NCBI GenBank assembly: GCA_963674705.1 | Contig: OY771506.1 | Coordinates: 3,584,001 to 3,648,000 of the forward strand | Direction: 5' to 3' | Origin: Phycisphaeraceae bacterium | Lineage (GTDB): Bacteria > Planctomycetota > Phycisphaerae > Phycisphaerales > Phycisphaeraceae | Length of the DNA: 64,000 nt | In this document: piece by piece, positions 1,573 to 52,724 of the stretch | Position numbering within the stretch: position 1 is the stretch's first letter | Layout of the letters: each line of letters begins with the position of its first letter | Program-made: the position numbers and the translations under genes | Notes under the pieces: model-generated | Told to the model about the DNA's origin: nothing | The model's database searches: none | Seen by the model: the letters and a program-made list of their open reading frames with translations, nothing else

Positions 1573-1803
1573 ATCCGATATCGACCCGGGATGCCTGGTT
1601 TTACTTGCTTTCCTAATTTAACGGTCTATGGTGTAGGCAGTGTTGGAGCCAACGCAATGCTAGATCGGCTCCGGTACCGGATGACTGGATAAAGGGCAGG
1701 CCGCTCAGGCGGCAGGCCCGTTAACAAGTAAGCCGATGTGGTTCACCACCTTAAGGTGCGGAACCACATCGGCTTTTTTTGTCGATTTTCCTGACCGTTC
1801 AGG
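1573..1803 (+). promoter_or_regulatory. Duplicated promoter + structured leader module, copy 1 (copy 2 at 20840-21073)
   Basis: Visible similarity to 20840-21073; TTGCTT-N16-TATGGT at 1605-1632; hairpins followed by an intrinsic terminator. Confidence 0.75.
1730..1780 (+). terminator. Intrinsic terminator in the leader upstream of the Hsp20/GroESL genes
   Basis: 15-bp perfect stem AAGCCGATGTGGTTC/GAACCACATCGGCTT followed by a T run. Confidence 0.85.
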
Positions 1804-1872: not shown

Positions 1873-2430
1873 ATGACCACGCAGAGCACATCGAATATCA
1901 ATCTATTCTCAATGTCTCCGATAGCTCATGGTGCGAAGTATGCCGTCGTCAAGGCGGTCAGTGAAAACAGATGCACGTCCGATCGCGTTGAAGATCTCTG
2001 CGTCGATTTGCTCGTGAGTTGCTCCGCTGAATCGGCAGAAGCACAACGGCTGACGCGGGTGATAGAAGAACTGATCAGCGGGGCGATGTCCGGAGCCGGC
2101 TCATACAACCACACGGTGGTTTATGGCGCGGTTCGTGGGTCGATCCGGGGCGCTTGTGAGATCGGCCTCGACCCGGTATCCGCCGCGATAGTAGCAGTTG
2201 AGACCGCAGCGACCGCATGGACCGACGAAGGCAATCCCCTGTTGATCGAGGCTGCTGTAAGAGCGGCGATGTCTGCCGCGAAACAGATCGGTCCACCTGT
2301 TCAGGAGGATCTACATCAGTGGCTCAGCGAGCGCATACCACTGGCCGCCTGTTGTTTGAACCTAGCCAGCCCGGGGACTGGCTCTGAGGTAGAGCTAAAT
2401 AGCGAAAACCCCGTAATCCAAGGAGACTAG
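1873..2430 (+). CDS. Hypothetical Ala/Gly-rich protein, first gene of the chaperone cluster
   Basis: 185-aa ORF with AAGGAA RBS, 2 bp upstream of Hsp20. Confidence 0.6.
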   Translation: MTTQSTSNINLFSMSPIAHGAKYAVVKAVSENRCTSDRVEDLCVDLLVSCSAESAEAQRLTRVIEELISGAMSGAGSYNHTVVYGAVRGSIRGACEIGLDPVSAAIVAVETAATAWTDEGNPLLIEAAVRAAMSAAKQIGPPVQEDLHQWLSERIPLAACCLNLASPGTGSEVELNSENPVIQGD

Positions 2431-2432
2431 AA

Positions 2433-2873
2433 ATGCTTCCCACGTTACTGACCAAACGACCCTATTTTAACGATCCAACCGACTTCCTCCGCCATGAAAT
2501 AGGACGGTTCTTCGGGCCGGTCGTCAGTGAGGGGGGCGAGGCCCGTCCCGACCTGGTTGGCGCCTACCCCGTCGATATCCGTGAGATGGACGACGTGATC
2601 GTTGTAGAGGCCGAGGTGCCCGGCTTCGATAAGAATGAGATCCAGGTCAGCCTCGAACGCGGCATGCTTACCATCACGGGCGAGCGCAAGGCCGAGGAGT
2701 CCAAAGGCGAGAAATACCTGACCGAAAGGCGTTACCTGCGTGTTCAACGACGCTTCCAACTCCCCGCGACCGTCTATGAGTCAAAAGTGGATGCGACGTT
2801 GAAGAACGGCGTACTGACGCTCGTGCTTCAGAAGACGACCGAGGCTAAGCCCAAACTCATCGCGATCAAGTGA
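2433..2873 (+). CDS. Hsp20/alpha-crystallin small heat-shock protein
   Basis: YPVDIRE, EVPG, LTITGER and A.LKNGVLTL motifs; C-terminal IAI (IxI) motif. Confidence 0.95.
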   Translation: MLPTLLTKRPYFNDPTDFLRHEIGRFFGPVVSEGGEARPDLVGAYPVDIREMDDVIVVEAEVPGFDKNEIQVSLERGMLTITGERKAEESKGEKYLTERRYLRVQRRFQLPATVYESKVDATLKNGVLTLVLQKTTEAKPKLIAIK

Positions 2874-2944
2874 GTACATGAGGGGGACCCGCCGTGGGGC
2901 CGTGGGACGCCGCCGCCTCATGCCTTATCCACGGAGGGCGAACT

Positions 2945-3250
2945 ATGAAAACGAAACTGCGTCCACTCGGCGACCGCTTACTCATCCAACGGTTGGAGAC
3001 CGAATCGACCACCAAATCCGGCATCGTGCTACCTGACAGCGCCAAAGAGAAGCCGCAGCAAGCCAAGGTCATCAGTGTCGGATCGGGCAGGCTGTTGGAC
3101 GACGGCAAACGGGCACCCATGAGCGTTAAGAAGGGCGACACGATCATCCTCAGTAAATGGGGTGGCACGGAAATCAAACTCGACGGCGAGGACTGTGTCA
3201 TCATTAAGGAAGACGACGTTTTAGCGGTCGTTGTAGGACGGCTGTTGTGA
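2945..3250 (+). CDS. groES: Co-chaperonin GroES
   Basis: LRPLGDR...SGIVLPDSAKEKP; start moved to ATG 2945 after the GGAGG RBS. Confidence 0.97.
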   Translation: MKTKLRPLGDRLLIQRLETESTTKSGIVLPDSAKEKPQQAKVISVGSGRLLDDGKRAPMSVKKGDTIILSKWGGTEIKLDGEDCVIIKEDDVLAVVVGRLL

Positions 3251-3291
3251 TCAGGGCATCTACCCGCAATTAACAATCAAGGCGACTATCC

Positions 3292-4932
3292 ATGACCGCG
3301 AAGACCATCACATTCGACCAGGACGCCCGCGAATCGATACGCCGCGGCGTCGCCAAACTCGCTCGAGCCGTCAAGACCACCCTAGGCCCGTCGGGCAGGG
3401 TTGTGGTGCTCCAGAAGAAATGGGGGCCACCCACGATCACCAAGGACGGAGTTACTGTCGCCAGCGAGATCGAAATCGAAGACCCGATCGAGAACATCGG
3501 CGCACAGATGGTCAAGGAGGTCGCGTTAAAATCGTCCAAAGACGCCGGGGATGGTACGACGACGGCGACCATCTATGCAGAGGCGATCTTCAGCGAGGGC
3601 CTCAAGAACATAGCTGCCGGCGGACATCCGTATGAGATCCAGCGAGGGATCCATAAGGCGGTACAGGCCATCGTGGACGAGCTAAAGCGGATGTCCAAGC
3701 CTACGAAGTCTACGATCGAGATCGCGCAAGTCGGTACCTGCGCGGCTAACCAGGATGAGGAAATCGGTCGCATCATCGCTGAGGCGATGGAGAAGGTCGG
3801 CAAGGACGGTGTAATGACAGTCGAGGAAGGCAAGACCCTCCAGACCGAGGTCGAGTTCTTTGAAGGATTACAGATCGAGAAGGGGTATCTGTCACCGCAC
3901 TTCGTGACCAACCAGTCTGATATGGAGTGTGTGTTGGAAGACGCGTATGTCTTCATCCACGAGAAGAAACTTGATTCGGCAGCTAAGCTGGTGCCGCTTC
4001 TTGGTAAAATCGCCGAGTCTGGTAAGTCACTGCTCATTGTCGCTGAGGATATCACAAGTGATGTGCTTGCCACGCTTGTAGTAAACCGATTACGAGGCGT
4101 GCTTAAGTGCTGCGCCGTGAAGGCCCCCGGCTTTGGCGATCGTCGCAAGGCCATGCTTGAAGACATCGCCACAATTACCGACGGTAGGACTGTTGTGGAA
4201 GAACTTGGCCTCGACATCGAAAAGCTAACCCTGTCCGATCTTGGCCGAGCCAAAAAAATAGTGATAGATAAGGACACGACGACAATCATCGAAGGCGCAG
4301 GCAAGAAGGAGGCAATCCGGGGGCGCATCGAAGCGATCAGGCGCCAGATCACCTCGACAACAAGCGACTACGACCGCGAGAAGCTCCAAGAGCGCCTGGC
4401 TAAGCTGGCTGGTGGCGTGGCACAGATCAATGTTGGAGCGGCAACCGAATCAGCGATGAAGGAGAAGAAGGCGCGGGTCGAAGACGCGGTCCATGCCTGC
4501 CGGGCGGCGGTCGAAGAGGGCATCCTGCCTGGCGGTGGCGTCGCTCCTCTCCGAGCGCGACGGGTGCTTGATGAGGTCAAGAAGACCTGCCATGGCGACG
4601 AGCATGTAGGCGTCGATATCCTGCGACGCGCCGTCACCGCACCCATCAAGCAGATCGCCATCAACGCCGGCTACGACGGCTCCGTTGTCGCTGACGTGGT
4701 TGAGAAGTCGCTCAAACCCAACTACGGCTTCAACGCCGTGACCGAGCAGTACGGCGACATGGTAGAGATGGGCGTGTTGGTTCCGACTAAGGTCGAGCGT
4801 ATCGCTCTCCAGAACGCCGCATCTATCGCGGGCCTGCTGCTCACGACCGCGGTCGTTGTTTCTGAAATCAAGGCAACGAAGAAAAGCAAGAAGCATGCTT
4901 ACGCTGGTGAAGACGATGAAATTAGCTATTGA
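3292..4932 (+). CDS. groEL: Chaperonin GroEL (no GGM tail)
   Basis: [34 protein letters not shown] motifs. Confidence 0.98.
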
Positions 4933-9593: not shown

Positions 9594-10223
9594 ATGATGG
9601 GGCAGCCCCGCCATCTGCTGGCGCCAGTGTCTCCCAACGAGGTCTGGCATCTGGACCTGGCTGAACTTCGTATCGTGTGGTTCCGCTACACGGTCGCGGC
9701 CCTACTGGACGGCTACTCAAGGAAACTCCTGGCACTCAAGGTCTACCCGGGTTCACCGAAAAGCGCTGACTTAGTTGGTCTTATGCGGGATGCGATCCAC
9801 CGATCCGGGCCACCGCGATTCCTCATCACCGATCATGGATGTCAGTTCAGGAGGCGCTTCCGTACAGAAGTGGGGGATCTGAACGTGAAAGTCGTTCGGG
9901 GTCGGGTGCGTTGTCCGGCGTTCAACGGCAAAGTCGAGCGGTTCTTTAAGACCTTACGTACATGGCAACGCCGGACCTTCCTGCCGCTGAGCCTGTCGGG
10001 TATTCAGCGGAAGCTGGATGTGTTTCTTTACTGGTACAACACCGAGAGACCACACCAGGGGATCAAAGGGCTGACGCCAAACGAGGCTTGGGCGGGTGAA
10101 ACGCTGACTGGCTCGATCGCGTTCCGGTCAGCAAGAAGCGTATCGCCTCGCATCCGTATCAGACGGCGTTCATGCCGTGGCGACCCGTGCCTACCGTCGA
10201 TCCATGTCCGTGTTGCCGCCTAG
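9594..10223 (+). mobile_element. DDE integrase-core (rve) transposase, probably N-terminally truncated
   Basis: WHLD, TDHGCQF, NGKVERFFKT and YNTERPHQG motifs. Confidence 0.8.
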
Positions 10224-10398: not shown

Positions 10399-10905
10399 TT
10401 ATCGCAAAGGTTTCGACAGCGCTTCGAAGCCGGAGATCACGTCGAAGAGCTCCTCGTCGATACCGCTCTGACGCATACGATGGAAGGTCCGGTTGAGGCC
10501 CTCCAGCAATTCGTCGATGTTCTTCTCGGCACGCTGCATCGCCGCCAAGCGGCTCGCATTCTCGCTCGCGAGCGACTCAGCGCACGCCCGGAAGAGTGAA
10601 ATAAACAGATATTCGCGGATGAGTGCCCGCAACGTCGCGGTGCCGCCACCCATAACCTCGGGCAAGATCCGAGTTGGCCAGCCGATCTTGGCTAGCCCTT
10701 GCTGCCATTCCGCGTCAAGCGGCAGTAGCCGCTGGCTGACCGGCTCGTAGACCGCCCCAGACTTTGGGCGGTTATGAAAGACGTAGATATGCACATACTC
10801 TCCTTTGGCATGCTGTACCTCGCTTTCGATCTGGATCTGTCCCACGAGCGGAGTGATGGCTTTGACGGAATTCGGCACCATGAATAGCCCCATCAGCGGC
10901 AAGCA
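10399..10905 (-). pseudogene. atpG: C-terminal half of an alternate (N-ATPase-type) F1 gamma subunit
   Basis: ESLASENASRLAAMQRAEKNI and RQSGIDEELFDVISGFEAL; N-terminal half and other atp genes absent. Confidence 0.85.
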
Positions 10906-11791
10906 CCCTGACATCGACAAGGTATTGATCATCGGACCCAGCGGGAATGTAGGCAGCCGAATGATCCCCCGTCTGCTGGACGACGGCTATGAAGTCTGTG
11001 CCCTGCAATTCAATAGCCCGGTCAAACCACGTCCCGGACTTGAAGTCGTCCAAGGCAGCACCTTGGACAAGGAGGCGTTGACCAGTGCTGTGGAAGGCGT
11101 TGACGCTGTTTGCCACTTGGTCCGTGGTGGAGCGGGCCCCGGGGCTGATTCATGCGAGAAGTGGTTCAACTGCTGTCTGCGCGGCGCAGTGATTCTCCTT
11201 GAAGCCTGCAAAGGCAAACCGCTGAAGCGGGTCATCGTTGGCAGCGCCGACAATGTTTTCGGTCACACCCAGATCCACCACCCCGGCCCGATCAACGAGC
11301 ACCACCCTAAACATGCCGCTGACGGGTACTACGGTCTGTTCAAGATCGCCGAGGAAGAAATCAGCCGTCAGTACTACCTGGAGCACGGCGTGCCGGTTGT
11401 CATCACACGATTCCCCCTGATCTGGACCGAGTCCATGGTCGCGGGGAACCTTGCGGGTTGGGTGGATCGTTCTCGGAAGGTGGTTATGCGGAAGCTTGAT
11501 CGTGATGACCGGCCGTTGGTGCGGCACGATGTTGTCATCGACGATGTCATCGACGGTGTGATGCGTGCTATCGAGCAGGATGTAGCTCTGGGCGATGACT
11601 TTATCTTCGCGGGACCATCGGCTTATTCATCTGACACGATGACGACACGGCTGGCGGACAAGCTCGGATGGGATATCGAGGACCAGCCGCTGCCTTGGCA
11701 TTCCTGGCAGCTAGACGACAGCAAGGCGAGAGGCGTTCTGAACTACCGGCCCGGACACGATGTGCTCGACTGGATTGTTGAGCACATGTAG
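10880..11791 (+). CDS. NAD-dependent epimerase/dehydratase (extended SDR); native 5' end possibly missing
   Basis: IIGPSGNVG Rossmann motif; YGLFK (YxxxK). Confidence 0.8.
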   Translation: MNSPISGKHPDIDKVLIIGPSGNVGSRMIPRLLDDGYEVCALQFNSPVKPRPGLEVVQGSTLDKEALTSAVEGVDAVCHLVRGGAGPGADSCEKWFNCCLRGAVILLEACKGKPLKRVIVGSADNVFGHTQIHHPGPINEHHPKHAADGYYGLFKIAEEEISRQYYLEHGVPVVITRFPLIWTESMVAGNLAGWVDRSRKVVMRKLDRDDRPLVRHDVVIDDVIDGVMRAIEQDVALGDDFIFAGPSAYSSDTMTTRLADKLGWDIEDQPLPWHSWQLDDSKARGVLNYRPGHDVLDWIVEHM

Positions 11792-14835: not shown

Positions 14836-16359
14836 GTGGATGAAGACAGACGACGAACTGAACCCATCGATCGATGGGAGGATGAAGGCGGCGCGTTAAC
14901 GGGCAGCGCATCCGGCCAATCGAGTACGCAGCACCACATTGAAACGCGTTCGCAGCATCAGCCCACTGATGAACGAGGCGAGGCAGACGGGGCGACGTTG
15001 AAGCGTCAGCCGGATGATAATCTCCCTGCTGAAATGGCCGACTGGGTCACGAAACCCCTTGCGAGCTTCTTCAAAGTCGAGGTCGCCGCAGCCGTCATGC
15101 TGATCATCGCAACCGCTGCGGCCTTGGTGCTGTCGAATTCAGGCTGGGCCGCGCCGTTCGCAGCGTTCTGGGAGACTCCGGTCGGCCTGAGCTTCGGTGA
15201 CTTCGAGTTCTCTCGATCGCTTCGTCACTGGATCAACGACGGGTTCCTGACACTGTTCTTCTTTGTTGTCGCCCTTGAGCTCAAGCGCGAGATTGTCCTG
15301 GGCGAATTGCGCAACATGCGCACCGCGGCACTCTCCTTCGCCGGCGCGCTTGGGGGGATTGTTGTGCCTGCGGTCGTGTATCTTCTGCTCATGATTGGTG
15401 AGCCGGGCGTGAACGGCTGGGGGACCGTGACTGCCACGTCGGCAGCGTTCGTCGTGGGCTCGCTTGCGTTGCTGGGTTCGCGCATTCCGCCGGCACTCCG
15501 ACTCTTTCTGTTGTCGATCGCGATCTTCGACGACATCGGGGCGATCCTGGTGGTGGCGATCGGTTACGGGGAAGCGGTGCAGTGGAGCACACTTGCGGCC
15601 GCCGCGCTCGGCGTGCTCGTCCTTGCGGGGGCAGCGCGCGTCGGCATCAGGAGCATCCCGGTGTACTTCGTGCTCGGCATTACAATCTGGCTCTGTTTCG
15701 ACGCATCGGGTATCCATCCAACGCTGACAGGTATCGCGATGGGTCTCATGACGCCGACGCATCGATGGGTCTCGAACATTCGCATGCGCGCCATCCTCGG
15801 TCGCGTGCTTTCTCATCCACACGGCGAACACGCCGGTGGCGATACGATCGAGCGGCGGGATCTGCGGCAAGCCAGTAGAGCAGCGAGGGAATCGTCATCT
15901 CCAGTGGAGCGCCTGGAGTTCATCCTCCATCCTTGGGTAGGCTTTGTGATTCTGCCCATCTTTGCCTTCGCCAACGCCGGTGTGGCACTCTCCGGTGCAG
16001 ACCTGAAACAACCAATCTGTATTGCGATCCTGGCGGCCTTTGTACTGGGCAAACCGGCTGGCGTGCTCAGCGCGAGTTGGCTGGCTGTGCGTATCGGACT
16101 CGCCACACGCCCGCCGGGGCTGACCTGGCCGCTCATCGCAGGCGGTGGCCTGTTGACTGGGATCGGCTTCATTATGGCGCTGTTCATCGCCGGATTGGCT
16201 TTTAACCCCGAACAGTTTGACGACGCCAAGATTGCAATTCTCTTATCGTCCGTCATCTCTGCTGTGGCCGGCATCGCGGTGCTATTCTGGTTGACATCCA
16301 GCAAACGCAATGCGCAACAAAGCCAGGAAAAACTGGAATCGGTCGGGATTCGCAGCTGA
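14836..16359 (+). CDS. nhaA: Na+/H+ antiporter NhaA
   Basis: WINDG, LELKRE, AIFDDIG, GKP, GIGF.M motifs; long hydrophilic N-terminal extension. Confidence 0.93.
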   Translation: MDEDRRRTEPIDRWEDEGGALTGSASGQSSTQHHIETRSQHQPTDERGEADGATLKRQPDDNLPAEMADWVTKPLASFFKVEVAAAVMLIIATAAALVLSNSGWAAPFAAFWETPVGLSFGDFEFSRSLRHWINDGFLTLFFFVVALELKREIVLGELRNMRTAALSFAGALGGIVVPAVVYLLLMIGEPGVNGWGTVTATSAAFVVGSLALLGSRIPPALRLFLLSIAIFDDIGAILVVAIGYGEAVQWSTLAAAALGVLVLAGAARVGIRSIPVYFVLGITIWLCFDASGIHPTLTGIAMGLMTPTHRWVSNIRMRAILGRVLSHPHGEHAGGDTIERRDLRQASRAARESSSPVERLEFILHPWVGFVILPIFAFANAGVALSGADLKQPICIAILAAFVLGKPAGVLSASWLAVRIGLATRPPGLTWPLIAGGGLLTGIGFIMALFIAGLAFNPEQFDDAKIAILLSSVISAVAGIAVLFWLTSSKRNAQQSQEKLESVGIRS

Positions 16360-19652: not shown

Positions 19653-20211
19653 TGCCCCCCTCTGGTTCTTTGATCCAGTTGCTATGAGAGAATCGGTGAG
19701 TATGTAGATGCTTGCTGAGCCGTAGGGAGGGGCGCAGCCCCGACCGGAGGTTCAGGTGCGCTGGGCATGGATGAGTAACAATGGGGTGCAAGTCCCCAGC
19801 GGGGCCTGGCCCCCCAAACGGCCACGCACCTTCTCCACCGTGCGACGCCGCCGCTCGGGGTCTACAAGTTTGGGCGGGAGGCTTCCCGAAGGATCTGGAT
19901 GTCCAACGCCTGGTCCGCCACCAGCTTCTTCAGCCGCGTGTTCTCCTTCTCCATCTCCTTCATCTGCTTGGCCATCACCGGGTCCATCCCACCATACTTC
20001 GTCCGCCACCGGTAGTACGTCTGCTCGCTGATGCCCAGCTGCCTGCAGACCTCCGGCACCTTCAGTCCCTTGCCCAGCTCAATATCCGCCTGGCGGAGCT
20101 TGGCCACGATCTGCTCGGCGCTGTGTCGCTTCTTCATCGAGGAATCCTTTCCGGCCCGAGGCCGGCTGGATTCTCTCATATTCCCTGGATCAGGTTTTTA
20201 GGAGGGGGTCA
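19653..20211 (-). mobile_element. IS3-family (IS407-like) remnant bounded by related inverted ends
   Basis: Ends TGCCCCCCTC..TGATCCAG..TATGAGAGAATC and, on the reverse strand, TGACCCCCTC..TGATCCAG..TATGAGAGAATC; OrfB truncated. Confidence 0.8.
19862..20137 (-). CDS. IS3-family transposase OrfA
   Basis: MKKRHSAEQIVAKLRQA...GISEQTYYRW...ENTRLKKLVAD; C CCA AAC slippery site at the end. Confidence 0.9.
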   Translation of the reverse strand: MKKRHSAEQIVAKLRQADIELGKGLKVPEVCRQLGISEQTYYRWRTKYGGMDPVMAKQMKEMEKENTRLKKLVADQALDIQILREASRPNL

Positions 20212-20839: not shown

Positions 20840-21073
20840 TATCCGAAATCTAACGGGATTGCCCGATGTCGCTTGCGTTCCCAAATTTACCTGCTAGAGT
20901 GCAGGCGTTATCGGAGTAGAACTCAGTAACATAGCTGCTCCGGCATCGGATGACTAGGTAAGGGGCAGGTCGCAAGAGCGGCAGGCCCGTTGACAAGTAA
21001 GCCGATGTGGTTCACTACCTTAGGGTGTGGAACCACATCGGCTTTTTTTTGTTGATTTCCTTGGCCGCTCAGG
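20840..21073 (+). promoter_or_regulatory. Duplicated promoter + structured leader module, copy 2
   Basis: TTGCGT-N16-TAGAGT at 20873-20900; same core and terminator stem as 1573-1803. Confidence 0.75.
20999..21050 (+). terminator. Intrinsic terminator (copy 2)
   Basis: Same 15-bp stem as 1730-1775, followed by a T run. Confidence 0.85.
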
Positions 21074-21117
21074 GGTAGCGGGGACTGGGTTCGAACCAGC
21101 GGCCGCCGGGTATGAGC
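21074..21117 (-). pseudogene. Degenerate 3' half of an initiator tRNA-Met (possible att remnant)
   Basis: Reverse strand GCTCATACCCGGCGGCC GCTGG TTCGAAC CCAGT CCCCGCT ACC: CAT anticodon, T-arm, fMet-like acceptor strand; no 5' half. Confidence 0.65.
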
Positions 21118-21225
21118 GATTATCTAGAGGAAAGCCTAATGAAGACCCTGTCAGACTTGAATGATAAGACAATTGCAGATCTCTGAAATGTCGATTGGTT
21201 TTACCCACAGAAAAGGAAAACGACA

Positions 21226-21777
21226 ATGATTCATAAACTACTTGCGTGCCTCCTGACAACAACGCTGGCTGTTCCCGTATTCGCCCAGACCCAGCGCAAC
21301 AACACGACGGTCAACAATTGGGGACCGGAGGCGGGCGATTGGGAGTTCTCACTAGGCGGCGGGGGCACCAACGACAAGAACTTCGATAACGGCGGGTTTA
21401 ATGTGGATGCGGAACTGGGTAAGTACCTCACCGATGATTTCGCGGTCGCCGTGCGCCAGTCATGGAACTATACCGAAGTGAGCGGAGATTCCGTGTGGTC
21501 AGCCACCAGCCGCGTTGCGATTGATTACTACATCCCGCTGTTCGACGACCACCTGCGCCCCTTCATCGGGGCCAACCTCGGCTACGTTTACGGTGAAAAC
21601 GTCGATGACACTTGGGCCGCCGGTCCCGAAGCAGGTGTCAAGTGGTACGTGAAGGATGAGACCTTCATCTACGGCCGGGCCGAGTACCAGTTTCTTTTCG
21701 AGGACGGAGACGACGCGAGCGATAACTTCGACGACGGCATCTGGCTGTACACCGTCGGTATCGGCTTCAACTTCTGA
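21226..21777 (+). CDS. Small outer-membrane beta-barrel protein
   Basis: Signal peptide, alternating beta strands, RPFIG motif, C-terminal GIGFNF. Confidence 0.85.
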   Translation: MIHKLLACLLTTTLAVPVFAQTQRNNTTVNNWGPEAGDWEFSLGGGGTNDKNFDNGGFNVDAELGKYLTDDFAVAVRQSWNYTEVSGDSVWSATSRVAIDYYIPLFDDHLRPFIGANLGYVYGENVDDTWAAGPEAGVKWYVKDETFIYGRAEYQFLFEDGDDASDNFDDGIWLYTVGIGFNF

Positions 21778-22139
21778 GTAGCCCCAGCGCGGGGTAGAGC
21801 AAATGACGGTCGAAGGTCCCATGCAATGCTTAACGACCAATTAAAGGCCCAAAGATGCTCCGCCCCGCATATGTTTACATTCACATGACCGGCAACCAAG
21901 TTCGTTCCAGATCCATGAGCAAGCCCATCTGATTATTCCGGGGGCAGGTGACGAACGCCGCTTGTACTATGCTAAGGGCTTGCTATGGATTTTTTATTCC
22001 ATCCATAAATCGCGACGTGATGCGGCCACGAATGCCTGATCTGCATGTTGTGTTTTGTAACCCGCAACGGCGCAGCGTGCTACGGAAATATATTTTTAAT
22101 CCAACGTCAGTTACCCGACAAATCGGCCCACCTCCGAGA

Positions 22140-22315
22140 ATGGTCCGCGTCAGTTCGGATACACGTCGCCTGAGGTGCCTTCCAGGTAAACATTGCCACT
22201 ACAGCCGGGTCGCCGTGACCGGGACCTGCGATATAAAACATATCGATGTCATACTTCTTGAAGGCCGCGGCGCTGGGAAACGTGATGCGGCTGAGTCGGG
22301 TTGTGCCCATACGCC
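22140..22315 (-). pseudogene. Phosphoketolase fragment
   Basis: GTT...KKYDIDMFYIAGPGHG.PAVV, then after a frameshift NVYLEGT. Confidence 0.75.
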
Positions 22316-22415
22316 CCTGTTGGATTAGGCAAGAACCTGCTTCAGCGCGGCATGGTGTGACTCACGGCCTGACCCCGCCCCGGGCTCATTCGTACGCCGA
22401 TCGGGGACGGCTGCT

Positions 22416-25400
22416 ATGATGATCTATGGAGCGGGTCACCCGCTGTGGCGGTTTCGCAGCGCGAAAGGGAATAGGTGTATCACGGACAAATCATTTCCCA
22501 TTGTGGGGATTGGCGCATCAGCCGGCGGGCTGGATGCGATGACCGCACTCTTTGACGCGGGGCCTTCGCTTGCGGGCATGGCGTTCATCATCGTGCAGCA
22601 CCTGGACCCGAAGGGCGATAGCCATCTCGTTGATCTGCTCTCGCGACATACATCGCTGAAGGTACGGTCGGCGGAGGACGGGCTGACGATCAAGCCGAAC
22701 CATGTGTACGTATGCATTCCCAATCGCGACCTGGTCGTGAAGGACGGCTATCTACGACTGCTAGAAACCGATGCGGAACGCAGTCAGCGCCGGCCGATCG
22801 ATCGACTGTATGACTCGATGGCGTCGGCGTACGGCGACCACGCGATTGCGATGATTCTGTCGGGCACGGCGTCGGATGGGTCTCGCGGCATCTCAGCGAT
22901 CAAGTCCGCAGGCGGTATGGTAATGGTACAGGATCCGGAGACGGCAGAGTACGACGGCATGCCGCGTAATGCGATCAGCACCGCGCTGGTGGATCTGGTG
23001 CTGCCGATCGAGCAGATGCCGGAGGTGTTGCAACGGCTGGCGGCGCATCCGAGTGATGATAGCCTTGCGGTCGATGACAAGGAGCACGGTGGCGGGGAAT
23101 CGGATGGTATGCGCGCGTCATTGCACAGCATCCTGAGCGTGCTGCACGATCAGTTTGATTACGACTTTGCGGATTACAAGCAGCCAACGCTGCTGCGGCG
23201 CACGCAGCGGCGGATGAGCCTGCGGAACGTCGATGACATCGATGCGTATACGAAACTGGTGCGCGAGGATGAGAAGGAAGCCGCATCGCTGTATCGCGAT
23301 CTGATGATCAACGTGTCGAGTTTCTTCCGCGATCCGAAGGCGTGGGAGGAACTGGAGAAGCAGGTCATCGAACCGCTGGTGGCCCGACGCGAGAGCGGCG
23401 ATGAGATTCGGGTCTGGTCGGCAGGATGCGCGACAGGTGAGGAAGCGTACACGATCGGCATGGTGCTGCTGGAGAAGATTGAACTGTCGGGCAAGCGCAT
23501 CAGGCCGCAGATCTTCGCGACGGATGTCTCGGACAGTCTCGACGTCGCGCGGGTGGGGGTGTATCCGGAGACGATCGAAGCGCAGCTCTCGCAGGAGCGG
23601 CTGGCGAAGTTTTTCATCAAGCGCGAATCGACGTATGAAGTGAAGAAGCACCTGCGCGACCTGATTGTCTTTGCGCGGCATAACGTGATCAGCGATCCGC
23701 CGTTCTCGCGGATGGACATGATCATCTGCCGCAACCTGCTGATTTACATCGAGCCGGACACGCAGCGGAAGATTCTGGGGATGTTCAACTTCGCGCTGCG
23801 CGACGGCGGGTCGCTTTTCCTGGGCAGCGCGGAGACGATCGGCATGTGGGGGGAACTGTTCGAGCCGATCTCGGCACCCTGCCGCATCTTCCGATCGCGG
23901 CGGGTTGTTCATGCAGGACGGTTTGATTTTCCGAGGTTCTCGGTGACGGATCAGCGGCGCGGGGCGCTGGGCCAGACGAGGAGTCACCGGCCGTTGCGTG
24001 ATGAGTATCTGACGATGGCGCATCGCGCGCTGCTGGACCGGTACGCCCCGCCTTCGGTGGTGATCGACGCGGACCATCAGGTGCTGGTGTACCACGGCGA
24101 TACATCACGGTATCTGGGGCAGCCTGGCGGTGAGCCGACGCGCGATCTGCTGGCGCTTGTTTCGCCGGGCCTGAGGCCGCCGCTGCGTCATGCGATCCAC
24201 GATGCGGGCAGTGAGCGGCGATCGGCGACGACCGTGAATGCGTCCATCAAGGATGGCGAGTCACGCCGGCCGGTGAGGCTGACCGTCAGCCCGATCGGTC
24301 AGCCGCGCGATGAATCGCCGCTGTTGCTGGTGAGCTTTGAAGAGCCGGCGGAAACGGCGGATGGCGTTGCGCGTGAATCAGAGGACAGCGACAGTCGCGG
24401 CCAGACGGGCCAGACGGTCGATCAACTTGAAGAGGAATTACGCCTGACGCGGCAGGACCTGCGCGATGTCTCGGAGCAGTATGACCGGCTGGTCGAGGAG
24501 TACAGCACGTCCAACGAAGAGATGCTCTCGATCAACGAGGAACTGCAATCCGCGAACGAAGAACTGGAAACGTCGAAGGAAGAGTTGCAGTCATTGAATG
24601 AGGAACTCAACACGCTCAACAATGAACTACGCAGCAAGATTGAAGTGGTCGAGCAGACGAACAACGATTTGAACAATCTTCTGGTCAGCACCGAGGTGGC
24701 GACGCTGTTCCTCGACACATCCTACCGCATTCGCTGGTTCACCCCGGCGATCAAGGACGTGTTGCGGCTCATACCATCGGATGTTGGCCGGCCTATCAGC
24801 GATCTTGCGTCGATAGTGACGGGTTCGGACCTTGAACTGGCAGCGAAGGCGGTGCTGAAGACCCTTGTCCCGGATGAAACCGAAGTCAATAGCGAACAGG
24901 AACAGTCGTATATTCGGCGTGTACTTCCCTATCGCACGACGGACAACCGCATCGACGGTATCGTGGTGACATTCGTTGACATCACCGAGCACAAGAGGGG
25001 CGAGCGGCAGCGCGAGCGGCTGATGCATGAGTTGAGTCACCGCATCAAGAACACGCTGGCCACGGTGCAGGCGATCGTGCAAGGTGTGGGTCGACAGTGC
25101 AAGACTCTGCCGGAGTTCCTTGCCGCGTTCGAGCCGCGTCTGGCTGCGTTGGCCCGCGCGCATTCGCTCCTGACATCGCCCGGCGATGATCGCATTGAAC
25201 TAAGGCACGTACTCAAGCGGGAACTCACGCCGTATATCGATGACGATTCCGACCGCGTCATCATCGAGGGCGATGACATCGCGCTCAATCGTGAGCCAGC
25301 CATCGCGCTGGAACTGGTATTCCACGAAATGGTCACCAATGCCGTCAAGTATGGTTCCCTGTCCAACGAGACGGGGACCATCACCATTCGCTGGAATCGC

Positions 25401-25664
25401 ACGAAGAACGAGAGCGGCGAGCATGCACACATCGAGTGGGTCGAGTCGGGAGGCCCACCGATTGAATCCAAAGGCAATTCCGGCTTCGGCTCGCTGTTGA
25501 TCGAGAGCAGCATCGCCCACGATCTTGCGGGCACGATACACATGCAATTCAAGCCGGACGGGCTGCACTGCATGATATACTTTCCCCTCACGAAAGGGCA
25601 GGACAATGGCACCCACGAGAAGGTCGACAAAGTCGACACGGGCAGCGCTGCGGGAATCGAGTGA
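22416..25664 (+). CDS. CheB methylesterase-CheR methyltransferase-PAS-HWE histidine kinase fusion
   Basis: GIGASAGG, VQHL, WSAGCATGEEAY, CRNLLIY, NEEL coiled coil, ELSHRIKN, HEMVTNAVKYG, W.ESGG. Confidence 0.92.
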   Translation: MMIYGAGHPLWRFRSAKGNRCITDKSFPIVGIGASAGGLDAMTALFDAGPSLAGMAFIIVQHLDPKGDSHLVDLLSRHTSLKVRSAEDGLTIKPNHVYVCIPNRDLVVKDGYLRLLETDAERSQRRPIDRLYDSMASAYGDHAIAMILSGTASDGSRGISAIKSAGGMVMVQDPETAEYDGMPRNAISTALVDLVLPIEQMPEVLQRLAAHPSDDSLAVDDKEHGGGESDGMRASLHSILSVLHDQFDYDFADYKQPTLLRRTQRRMSLRNVDDIDAYTKLVREDEKEAASLYRDLMINVSSFFRDPKAWEELEKQVIEPLVARRESGDEIRVWSAGCATGEEAYTIGMVLLEKIELSGKRIRPQIFATDVSDSLDVARVGVYPETIEAQLSQERLAKFFIKRESTYEVKKHLRDLIVFARHNVISDPPFSRMDMIICRNLLIYIEPDTQRKILGMFNFALRDGGSLFLGSAETIGMWGELFEPISAPCRIFRSRRVVHAGRFDFPRFSVTDQRRGALGQTRSHRPLRDEYLTMAHRALLDRYAPPSVVIDADHQVLVYHGDTSRYLGQPGGEPTRDLLALVSPGLRPPLRHAIHDAGSERRSATTVNASIKDGESRRPVRLTVSPIGQPRDESPLLLVSFEEPAETADGVARESEDSDSRGQTGQTVDQLEEELRLTRQDLRDVSEQYDRLVEEYSTSNEEMLSINEELQSANEELETSKEELQSLNEELNTLNNELRSKIEVVEQTNNDLNNLLVSTEVATLFLDTSYRIRWFTPAIKDVLRLIPSDVGRPISDLASIVTGSDLELAAKAVLKTLVPDETEVNSEQEQSYIRRVLPYRTTDNRIDGIVVTFVDITEHKRGERQRERLMHELSHRIKNTLATVQAIVQGVGRQCKTLPEFLAAFEPRLAALARAHSLLTSPGDDRIELRHVLKRELTPYIDDDSDRVIIEGDDIALNREPAIALELVFHEMVTNAVKYGSLSNETGTITIRWNRTKNESGEHAHIEWVESGGPPIESKGNSGFGSLLIESSIAHDLAGTIHMQFKPDGLHCMIYFPLTKGQDNGTHEKVDKVDTGSAAGIE

Positions 25665-26487
25665 AACTGAATGCGATCGGTTGCTTGCCGGCCTGAGCAT
25701 TCTGATTGTCGAAGATATCGGCATGGTCGCCAGCGCCCTGAAAACCATGCTCGAAGAGCTTGGCTGCACCGTCGTCGGTATCGCGTCGCGTGTTGCCGAG
25801 GCGGAGAGGTTAGCGCGTCATGAACAGATCAACGGTGTGCTGCTCGATCTGAACCTCGGCGGAGAGTATTCGTTCGCCGTCACCGATATCCTGCATGAAC
25901 GAAACATCCCATTCATCATCATGTCCGGCTACGATGTGGAGCACCTGTGTCCGAAACTCGCCGATGAACCGCAGATGCCAAAGCCCTTCGACCGCGAGCC
26001 CCTGGAGGAGATGCTTCTGACGGTGTTCTGTGGTCAGAACCGTCGTAAAAAGCGCGCTGACGCCGGGTCGGCAAGTACGATCGGGCCGCACAAACCCCCG
26101 ATGAAGACGCGGGGCGAGCTCGAAAGCGCTATCTGCCTCGGCATGACACGCTTCGAGCAGGAGTACATGGGCCGCGGTCCGGCAGATGTGCAGGCACATC
26201 TCCTCAATGATTTTCTCATCATCCGCATGAAGTGCTTGATGACCGTCGCCGAGCAGCGCCTCGTGGAAAACTCGTCGCCGGAGAAGGGCCGCGATCTAGT
26301 CAAGAAACTGCGGACGCAGATGATGGAAGGTGCCCGCAAGCAGATCGACTCGATGATCCAGATCATCACCGGCGTGAGGGTACGATCACTGCATCACGAC
26401 ATCAGCACTCGCACGGGTGAGAAAGTCGTGATCTTCAGCCTCAGCGAAGAACCGACCTACCGGGAAACGAATCTGAGAGACCGCTAG
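25606..26487 (+). CDS. Receiver domain fused to a DUF2294 (MpsC-like) domain
   Basis: LIVED...LLDLNL...SGY...KP receiver; C-terminal KTRGELE...EYMGRGP...SLHHDISTRTGE. Confidence 0.8.
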   Translation: MAPTRRSTKSTRAALRESSETECDRLLAGLSILIVEDIGMVASALKTMLEELGCTVVGIASRVAEAERLARHEQINGVLLDLNLGGEYSFAVTDILHERNIPFIIMSGYDVEHLCPKLADEPQMPKPFDREPLEEMLLTVFCGQNRRKKRADAGSASTIGPHKPPMKTRGELESAICLGMTRFEQEYMGRGPADVQAHLLNDFLIIRMKCLMTVAEQRLVENSSPEKGRDLVKKLRTQMMEGARKQIDSMIQIITGVRVRSLHHDISTRTGEKVVIFSLSEEPTYRETNLRDR

Positions 26488-52605: not shown

Positions 52606-52724
52606 CGTCTTATCCAGAGTGGCAGAGGGAATGGGCCCGATGAAGCCACCGCAACCGTCACCGGCAAAGCCGGAAAGATTGGTGCGAACTCCCGCCCGGC
52701 CGTTTGGCTGGGGAAGATAAGAGG
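52606..52724 (+). ncRNA. SAM-I (S-box) riboswitch
   Basis: TCTTATCCAGAG..GAGGGA.TGGGCCCGATGAAGCC..GCAACC..GGTGCGAACTCC..GAAGATAAGA consensus, with P1 TCTTATC/GATAAGA. Confidence 0.95.

Follow-up and report, generated by a model that had tools for sequence, protein, structure and literature searches.

An uncatalogued conserved attenuator RNA of Planctomycetota and its association with DUF2294/MpsC genes

What is a transcription terminator doing between a promoter and a set of chaperone genes? The question is raised by a stretch of 64,000 nucleotides (nt) from a Phycisphaeraceae bacterium (GCA_963674705.1, contig OY771506.1, positions 3,584,001-3,648,000 of the forward strand; hereafter the window), in which a non-coding block of about 230 bp precedes Hsp20-GroES-GroEL (copy 1) and recurs ahead of a beta-barrel gene (copy 2), the copies being 76% identical over 234 nt (blastn, E 7e-41). 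A first-pass annotation had noticed this duplication, proposed a structured RNA under selection with a terminator whose read-through must be regulated, and loosely connected it to Na+ sensing. That interpretation is partly supported: the block belongs to a real, uncatalogued family of conserved attenuator RNAs, and the sodium connection does not stand. Moreover, the RNA is associated with genes of the DUF2294/MpsC family, and on sequence evidence we consider it fairly probable that MpsC is an RNA-binding antiterminator, with this RNA as its predicted site and a general-stress regulon under its control.

The RNA pattern was found in 16 stretches from records titled Phycisphaeraceae, Phycisphaerae, Gemmataceae, Pirellulales or Planctomycetia, and a metagenome scan added at least 125 more copies. 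The source genome itself has six copies, of which two had been seen before; they cluster in two islands rich in insertion sequences (IS), and all six lie shortly upstream of an open reading frame (ORF) on the same strand. From 158 distinct matches (four more lacked the anchor), nine that were truncated or had no 3' core and four that were mis-anchored were removed, which left 145 rows in the alignment, A3. The core is a single interrupted hairpin of about 58 nt, and structure analysis of the aligned copies found neither a junction nor a pseudoknot in it. Starting on the 5' side it comprises P1 (GUCGG/CCGAC), a 3x3 loop (ANG/AAR) and P2 (ACU/AGU), followed inwards by the pairs 18-66, 19-63 and 20-62, an A-G mismatch, P3 (GRGC/GCYY), a purine loop and a variable P4. 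In A3 96.4% of the cells are paired, a level reached in none of 500 shuffles, with slid controls pairing at 23-50%, and two-sided changes occur in 10 of the 18 pairs (G19-C63, A23-U59, P4); the covariation supports the proposed selection on RNA structure. The invariance of columns is partly built in, because the search pattern and the anchor fixed several of them; the terminator lies outside the pattern.

The terminator draws on columns 73-80, including the 3' strand of P1, so that the core hairpin and the terminator are mutually exclusive folds. The 5' CGG of the core pairs with the CCG of the terminator arm, a pairing that the first-pass annotation overlooked; in copy 1 this 5' arm, AAGCCG, is the 3' end of the core. 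Across the family complementarity between the terminator arm and the 5' strand of P1 is maintained (C6/U6-G78), and A4-U80-A126 change together in seven copies. In computed folds the terminator is present in the minimum free energy structure of 143 of the 145 copies, the antiterminator falling short of it in stability by 11.3 and 8.2 kcal/mol in the two copies of the window and by a median of 9.9, and P1 is formed in 145/145 nascent transcripts ending just past it. In 103 of 150 copies a predicted promoter of the form TTG..TANNNT stands no more than 130 nt upstream, against 8.8 expected after shuffling. This anatomy is that of a default-OFF attenuator which needs something to stabilise the antiterminator, and the covariation, the overlap of the two folds and the promoter enrichment uphold the earlier view that read-through must be regulated.

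What the attenuator controls was approached through 213 candidate downstream ORFs; the scan covered 93 of them, passing over MpsC ORFs and many that were short or duplicates, and 39 had a Pfam match; since the choice of ORFs was automatic, some of those tabulated are not first genes. The annotated ones include six sigma factors and six kinase, receiver or PAS proteins, two each of CsbD, DUF3309, DksA-type and SPFH/FloA proteins, as well as DUF5670, BON, ferritin, STAS, fatty-acid desaturase, AI-2E and KaiC. We take this set to resemble a general stress regulon.

No catalogued RNA accounts for the element. At gathering score Rfam 15 matched nothing in the whole window except an unrelated SAM riboswitch, and neither copy, nor any of 20 homologous loci, had a relevant match to E 10. 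The Na+-I riboswitch (DUF1646) was rejected, RF03071 having matched in 0/31 genomes of the phylum and in its positive control, L. lactis; likewise the Li+ riboswitches nhaA-I and nhaA-II gave no covariance-model match to E 10, and no Na+ transporter was among the 39 annotated ORFs. As described in PMC9337991, the Na+-I riboswitch has two stems, P1 and P2, with a conserved P1 base and P2 loop, and serves Na+ transport genes. Our RNA resembles it in its ON logic, in a conserved fold overlapping the terminator and in a conserved AAG at the stem base, but is one interrupted hairpin with a variable apical loop, and its identity as the DUF1646 riboswitch is not supported as such. The island does carry NhaA (14836-16359), as had been noted, together with a C-terminal fragment of ATP-synthase gamma (10402-10986, - strand). 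Another planctomycete cis-regulatory hairpin, the Rhodopirellula-1 motif, has some members that start with CGGAUGA; it pairs GAU/AUC and AAC/GUU (PMC2864571), lacks both AGUAAGCC and an overlapping terminator in the three rows compared, and has no Rfam identifier in the paper's table. DUF2294/COG5609 had 0 occurrences across 8 of its supplements, one of which was incomplete. In the literature covered, neither this RNA nor any RNA-related role for DUF2294 was described, although some supplements fell outside it and could change the novelty.

The protein most closely tied to the RNA belongs to DUF2294/MpsC/YbcI (PF10057), a family of 2727 clusters at 50% identity which is present in B. subtilis and lies beside S. 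aureus mpsAB, and for which we found no printed function. A recurrent layout places a divergent mpsC-A, the promoter, the RNA and mpsC-B in a row, the two MpsC types being homologous (27%). The gene is downstream of the RNA in 22/91 copies, divergent in 28/94, and in any position in 24 of 51 well-flanked copies. A DNA search of 401 genomes from the phylum detected the RNA in 6, a count that is too low because only two candidates were scored per genome, and all 6 are among the 34 with PF10057; a model search of 150 genomes also found it in six, five of which encode MpsC. When sampling started from the protein, this RNA (class I) was present at 8 of 30 MpsC-chosen loci (E<1e-12). Outside the phylum, the sole match of model R1 in a 2.63-Mb record of the Firmicute Acetoanaerobium lies about 45 nt after mpsC, has UUGG/CCAA in P1 and precedes an oxalate/formate- or lactate-type major facilitator superfamily gene; in Anoxybacillus, mpsC and a bicarbonate transporter flank a similar core, at a score of only E 0.58 with model R2. 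Structural models of MpsC suggest a KH-II-like topology with invariant arginines. The association with MpsC favours a protein-dependent attenuator over a riboswitch. A planctomycete-type MpsC gene in two pieces was also seen in a 595-kb record titled uncultured phage (L233:4001-4347).

Related leaders stand beside other mpsC genes. At 11 further loci of the 30 a second leader (class II; GG-CAG-A...RGG...CUG...U-ANR-CC plus terminator) was read by eye just after mpsC, behind a TTGACA/TATAAT-type promoter; it was counted with a descriptor tuned on the same loci, by which 3 of 600 random own-genome windows also score. Its alignment covaries (88% paired, 11 rows), and its pattern occurs in 7 of the 401 genomes, 6 of them with MpsC, the reversed control pattern giving 3 matches. 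The genes that follow are phosphoenolpyruvate carboxykinase (PEPCK, 5 loci), SbtA, pyruvate:ferredoxin oxidoreductase, DUF4914 and argininosuccinate synthase, and in one copy a transposase; in genome G318, mpsC is followed by DabB/DabA, with a terminator in between that the descriptor does not match. More distant DUF2294 genes, in Bacillus and Staphylococcus, have other leader-terminators and formate dehydrogenase genes as neighbours. Priestia megaterium, upstream of fdhF, and Bacillus badius have a different conserved leader with an overlapping terminator, divergent from a DUF2294-fdhD operon (L232:3585-3700 (-), L230:3690-3800 (-)), and in Staphylococcus a long terminator hairpin overlapping a small hairpin separates a DUF2294 paralogue from a formate-dehydrogenase-like gene (L229:4335-4440 (+)). 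A second long structured leader with an overlapping terminator, upstream of an Anoxybacillus DUF2294 gene (L224:6830-6985 (+)), is unlike the class I core and has no Rfam match at gathering score. Upstream of an mpsA-like ORF there is a strongly structured leader with a terminator (L228:1455-1590 (+), z -7.6), a candidate attenuator for CO2 control of mpsAB; in S. aureus, mpsA transcription falls in 5% CO2, according to PMC6689103.

Several observations weigh against MpsC as the partner of the RNA. One of the six RNA genomes among the 150, G154, has no MpsC, no scored element was present at 11 of the 30 MpsC loci, and no significant model score joins class I to class II. Moreover, PMC6689103 describes S. 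aureus mpsC as dispensable for MpsAB activity and its deletion as without growth effect, and in the S. aureus mpsA leader a terminator is present but the class I core was not found. The alternative that survives best, which we regard as unlikely, is that the core is a riboswitch aptamer, an ON switch for a small ligand such as an ion, bicarbonate/formate or a stress nucleotide, and mpsC merely a frequent target. The diversity of target genes, G154 and the S. aureus deletion would fit this, as would the invariant internal-loop bases and the overlap of aptamer and terminator, in keeping with Na+ riboswitch logic (PMC9337991). However, the core is a single hairpin in which neither junction nor pseudoknot was found, the RNA also adjoins a divergent mpsC-A or sits just downstream of mpsC, where it could not control the gene in cis, and an ON switch activated by bicarbonate would act in the wrong direction in front of bicarbonate importers.

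It is improbable that the terminated transcript of about 140 nt is itself the product, a small RNA or decoy titrating MpsC or another protein with read-through as constitutive leak: an own predicted promoter, a strong terminator and six copies per genome would suit it, but neither the kept complementarity of P1 to the terminator arm nor the place of all six copies ahead of same-strand ORFs would be expected. We give slightly less credence still to an attenuator bound by some other protein, with RNA and mpsC hitchhiking on the same mobile stress islands; the IS-rich islands and the patchy distribution (6/401 genomes) point that way, but adjacency within tens to hundreds of bases recurs across Planctomycetota families and in a Firmicute with unrelated neighbour genes. 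A heat-sensing, thermometer-like attenuator, suggested by the chaperone genes behind copy 1, is very improbable, given that chaperones are 0/39 of the annotated ORFs elsewhere, that the link between this leader and its present genes is apparently recent, and that the less stable antiterminator would, from the computed energies, weaken first on heating.

An MpsC-bound attenuator would have precedents in known systems. BglG, LicT and SacY act by antitermination at a ribonucleic antiterminator (RAT) of about 30 nt. ANTAR regulators recognise twin small hairpins through a helical domain. With the former our RNA shares an imperfect hairpin overlapping the 5' arm of the terminator, a default-OFF state and, presumably, protein-bound read-through (PMC5393181), whereas its core is about twice as long, has no Rfam match to RAT, has non-sugar targets and is paired with PF10057 instead of a CAT/PRD protein. 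With the ANTAR regulators AmiR, NasT/NasR and EutV (for NasT antitermination, see PMC3795266) it has in common an output domain fused to a receiver, a multi-gene regulon and antitermination, but here there are one long interrupted hairpin and an alpha/beta MpsC domain. As in both systems, we found exclusive hairpin and terminator folds, a predicted position between promoter and gene, and a linked, co-distributed protein gene, with G154 as the one exception. By analogy, the attenuator would work like RAT or ANTAR systems while belonging to neither; the partner proteins are members of DUF2294/MpsC/YbcI, for which RNA binding is proposed here.

In the window, both copies (fold z-scores -7.3 and -6.6) carry the imperfect inverted repeat ATCCG...GGGAT already described (1573-1592 and 20841-20859), a possible operator upstream of the -35 box in copy 1, which is lineage-local, a loose pattern being found in 8 of 149 copies, four of these from the source genus. 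The promoter-like boxes also hold: predicted sigma70-type promoters lie on the + strand at 1605-1632 (TTGCTT-16-TATGGT) and 20873-20900 (TTGCGT-16-TAGAGT), their assignment resting on the letters and on the upstream enrichment. The 5' hairpin is present in both copies (1640-1677 and 20911-20943, +), but family-wide it is optional, the GGAG..CTCC type occurring in 43 of 150 copies. Next come the core, the predicted antiterminator, at 1678-1735 (+; P1 CGG/CCG, an AUG/AAG loop, P2 ACU/AGU, an irregular helix with a purine-G mismatch, P3 GGGC/GCCC, a purine loop and variable P4) and 20943-21008 (+; P1 lengthened to 7 bp, GCAUCGG/CCGAUGU), and the intrinsic terminator at 1730-1780 (+; inner hairpin, T7) and 20999-21050 (+; T8), with the identical 15-bp stem reported earlier. 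A simple scanner did not call these promoters and long terminators; the terminator stems contain internal loops.

Behind copy 1 (1873-4932, +) are a 185-aa ORF of no known family, Hsp20, GroES and GroEL. The leader and the first nine codons of that ORF match a small gene behind sister copies (window 1873-1900 against L010) and then diverge; a recent recombination apparently brought the regulatory cassette to the Hsp20-GroESL block. Copy 2 precedes an outer-membrane beta-barrel gene (21226-21777, +; PF13505), beyond which are a CheB-CheR-PAS-HWE histidine kinase (22416-25664, +), a candidate sensor, and a receiver-DUF2294/MpsC fusion (25606-26487, +), a candidate phosphorylation-controlled antiterminator whose Pfam matches are PF00072 and PF10057 only, with no ANTAR domain; its receiver is weakly PhyR-like, below the cut-off. 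Directly behind the copy 2 terminator is a tRNA-like fragment (21077-21120), not called by ARAGORN and possibly an old integration site. The window also holds an integrase core (9594-10223, +), a transposase helix-turn-helix (19865-20197, -) and a phosphoketolase N-terminal piece (22110-22361, -), as well as the SAM-I riboswitch (RF00162, 80.6 bits, 52607-52723, +), before a PALP-family gene followed by ThiS, ThiF and aminotransferase genes. Two stress islands of this genome (G000:C1:2008000-2022000 and 3564000-3584000; L221, L222) have in common radical SAM, ankyrin-like, desaturase and GroEL paralogues, and also carry mechanosensitive channel, cyclopropane synthase, SYLF lipoprotein and ferritin genes.

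If MpsC is the antiterminator, RNA polymerase would start near 1639 or 20907, and the core hairpin would fold first, as P1 already pairs, in the computed folds, in transcripts that stop directly behind it. Unassisted, the terminator would win by about 8-11 kcal/mol and release the RNA of about 140 nt. Active type-A MpsC would then clamp the internal loops of the P1/AUG-AAG/P2 region and block the terminator, allowing read-through into Hsp20-GroES-GroEL, the beta-barrel gene and others. The signal would likely enter through the protein, here by phosphorylation of the receiver-MpsC fusion, and elsewhere possibly as CO2/bicarbonate or formate, where related leaders precede carboxylases and bicarbonate transporters; the diverged type-B MpsC behind many copies might, speculatively, be a feedback partner. 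A wider proposal is tentative, and we would put it somewhat below even chances: DUF2294/MpsC/YbcI would be an unrecognised cross-phylum family of KH-like antiterminators binding this RNA, whose ancestral system, responding to CO2/bicarbonate or formate, gates at termination the import of bicarbonate as well as formate enzymes and carboxylases that fix CO2, and was rewired in some Planctomycetota to an HWE kinase and receiver fusion for an RNA-run general stress response.

Should the protein link fail, the RNA would still be a new candidate ON switch with good covariation and 145 sequences. If the link is true, the orphan family DUF2294/MpsC gains a function, and a new protein-RNA antitermination class would stand beside RAT and ANTAR. 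It would also offer a testable route for CO2 regulation of DabAB, SbtA and PEPCK in heterotrophs, anammox bacteria and Firmicutes, and would suggest how some Planctomycetota control their general stress regulon.
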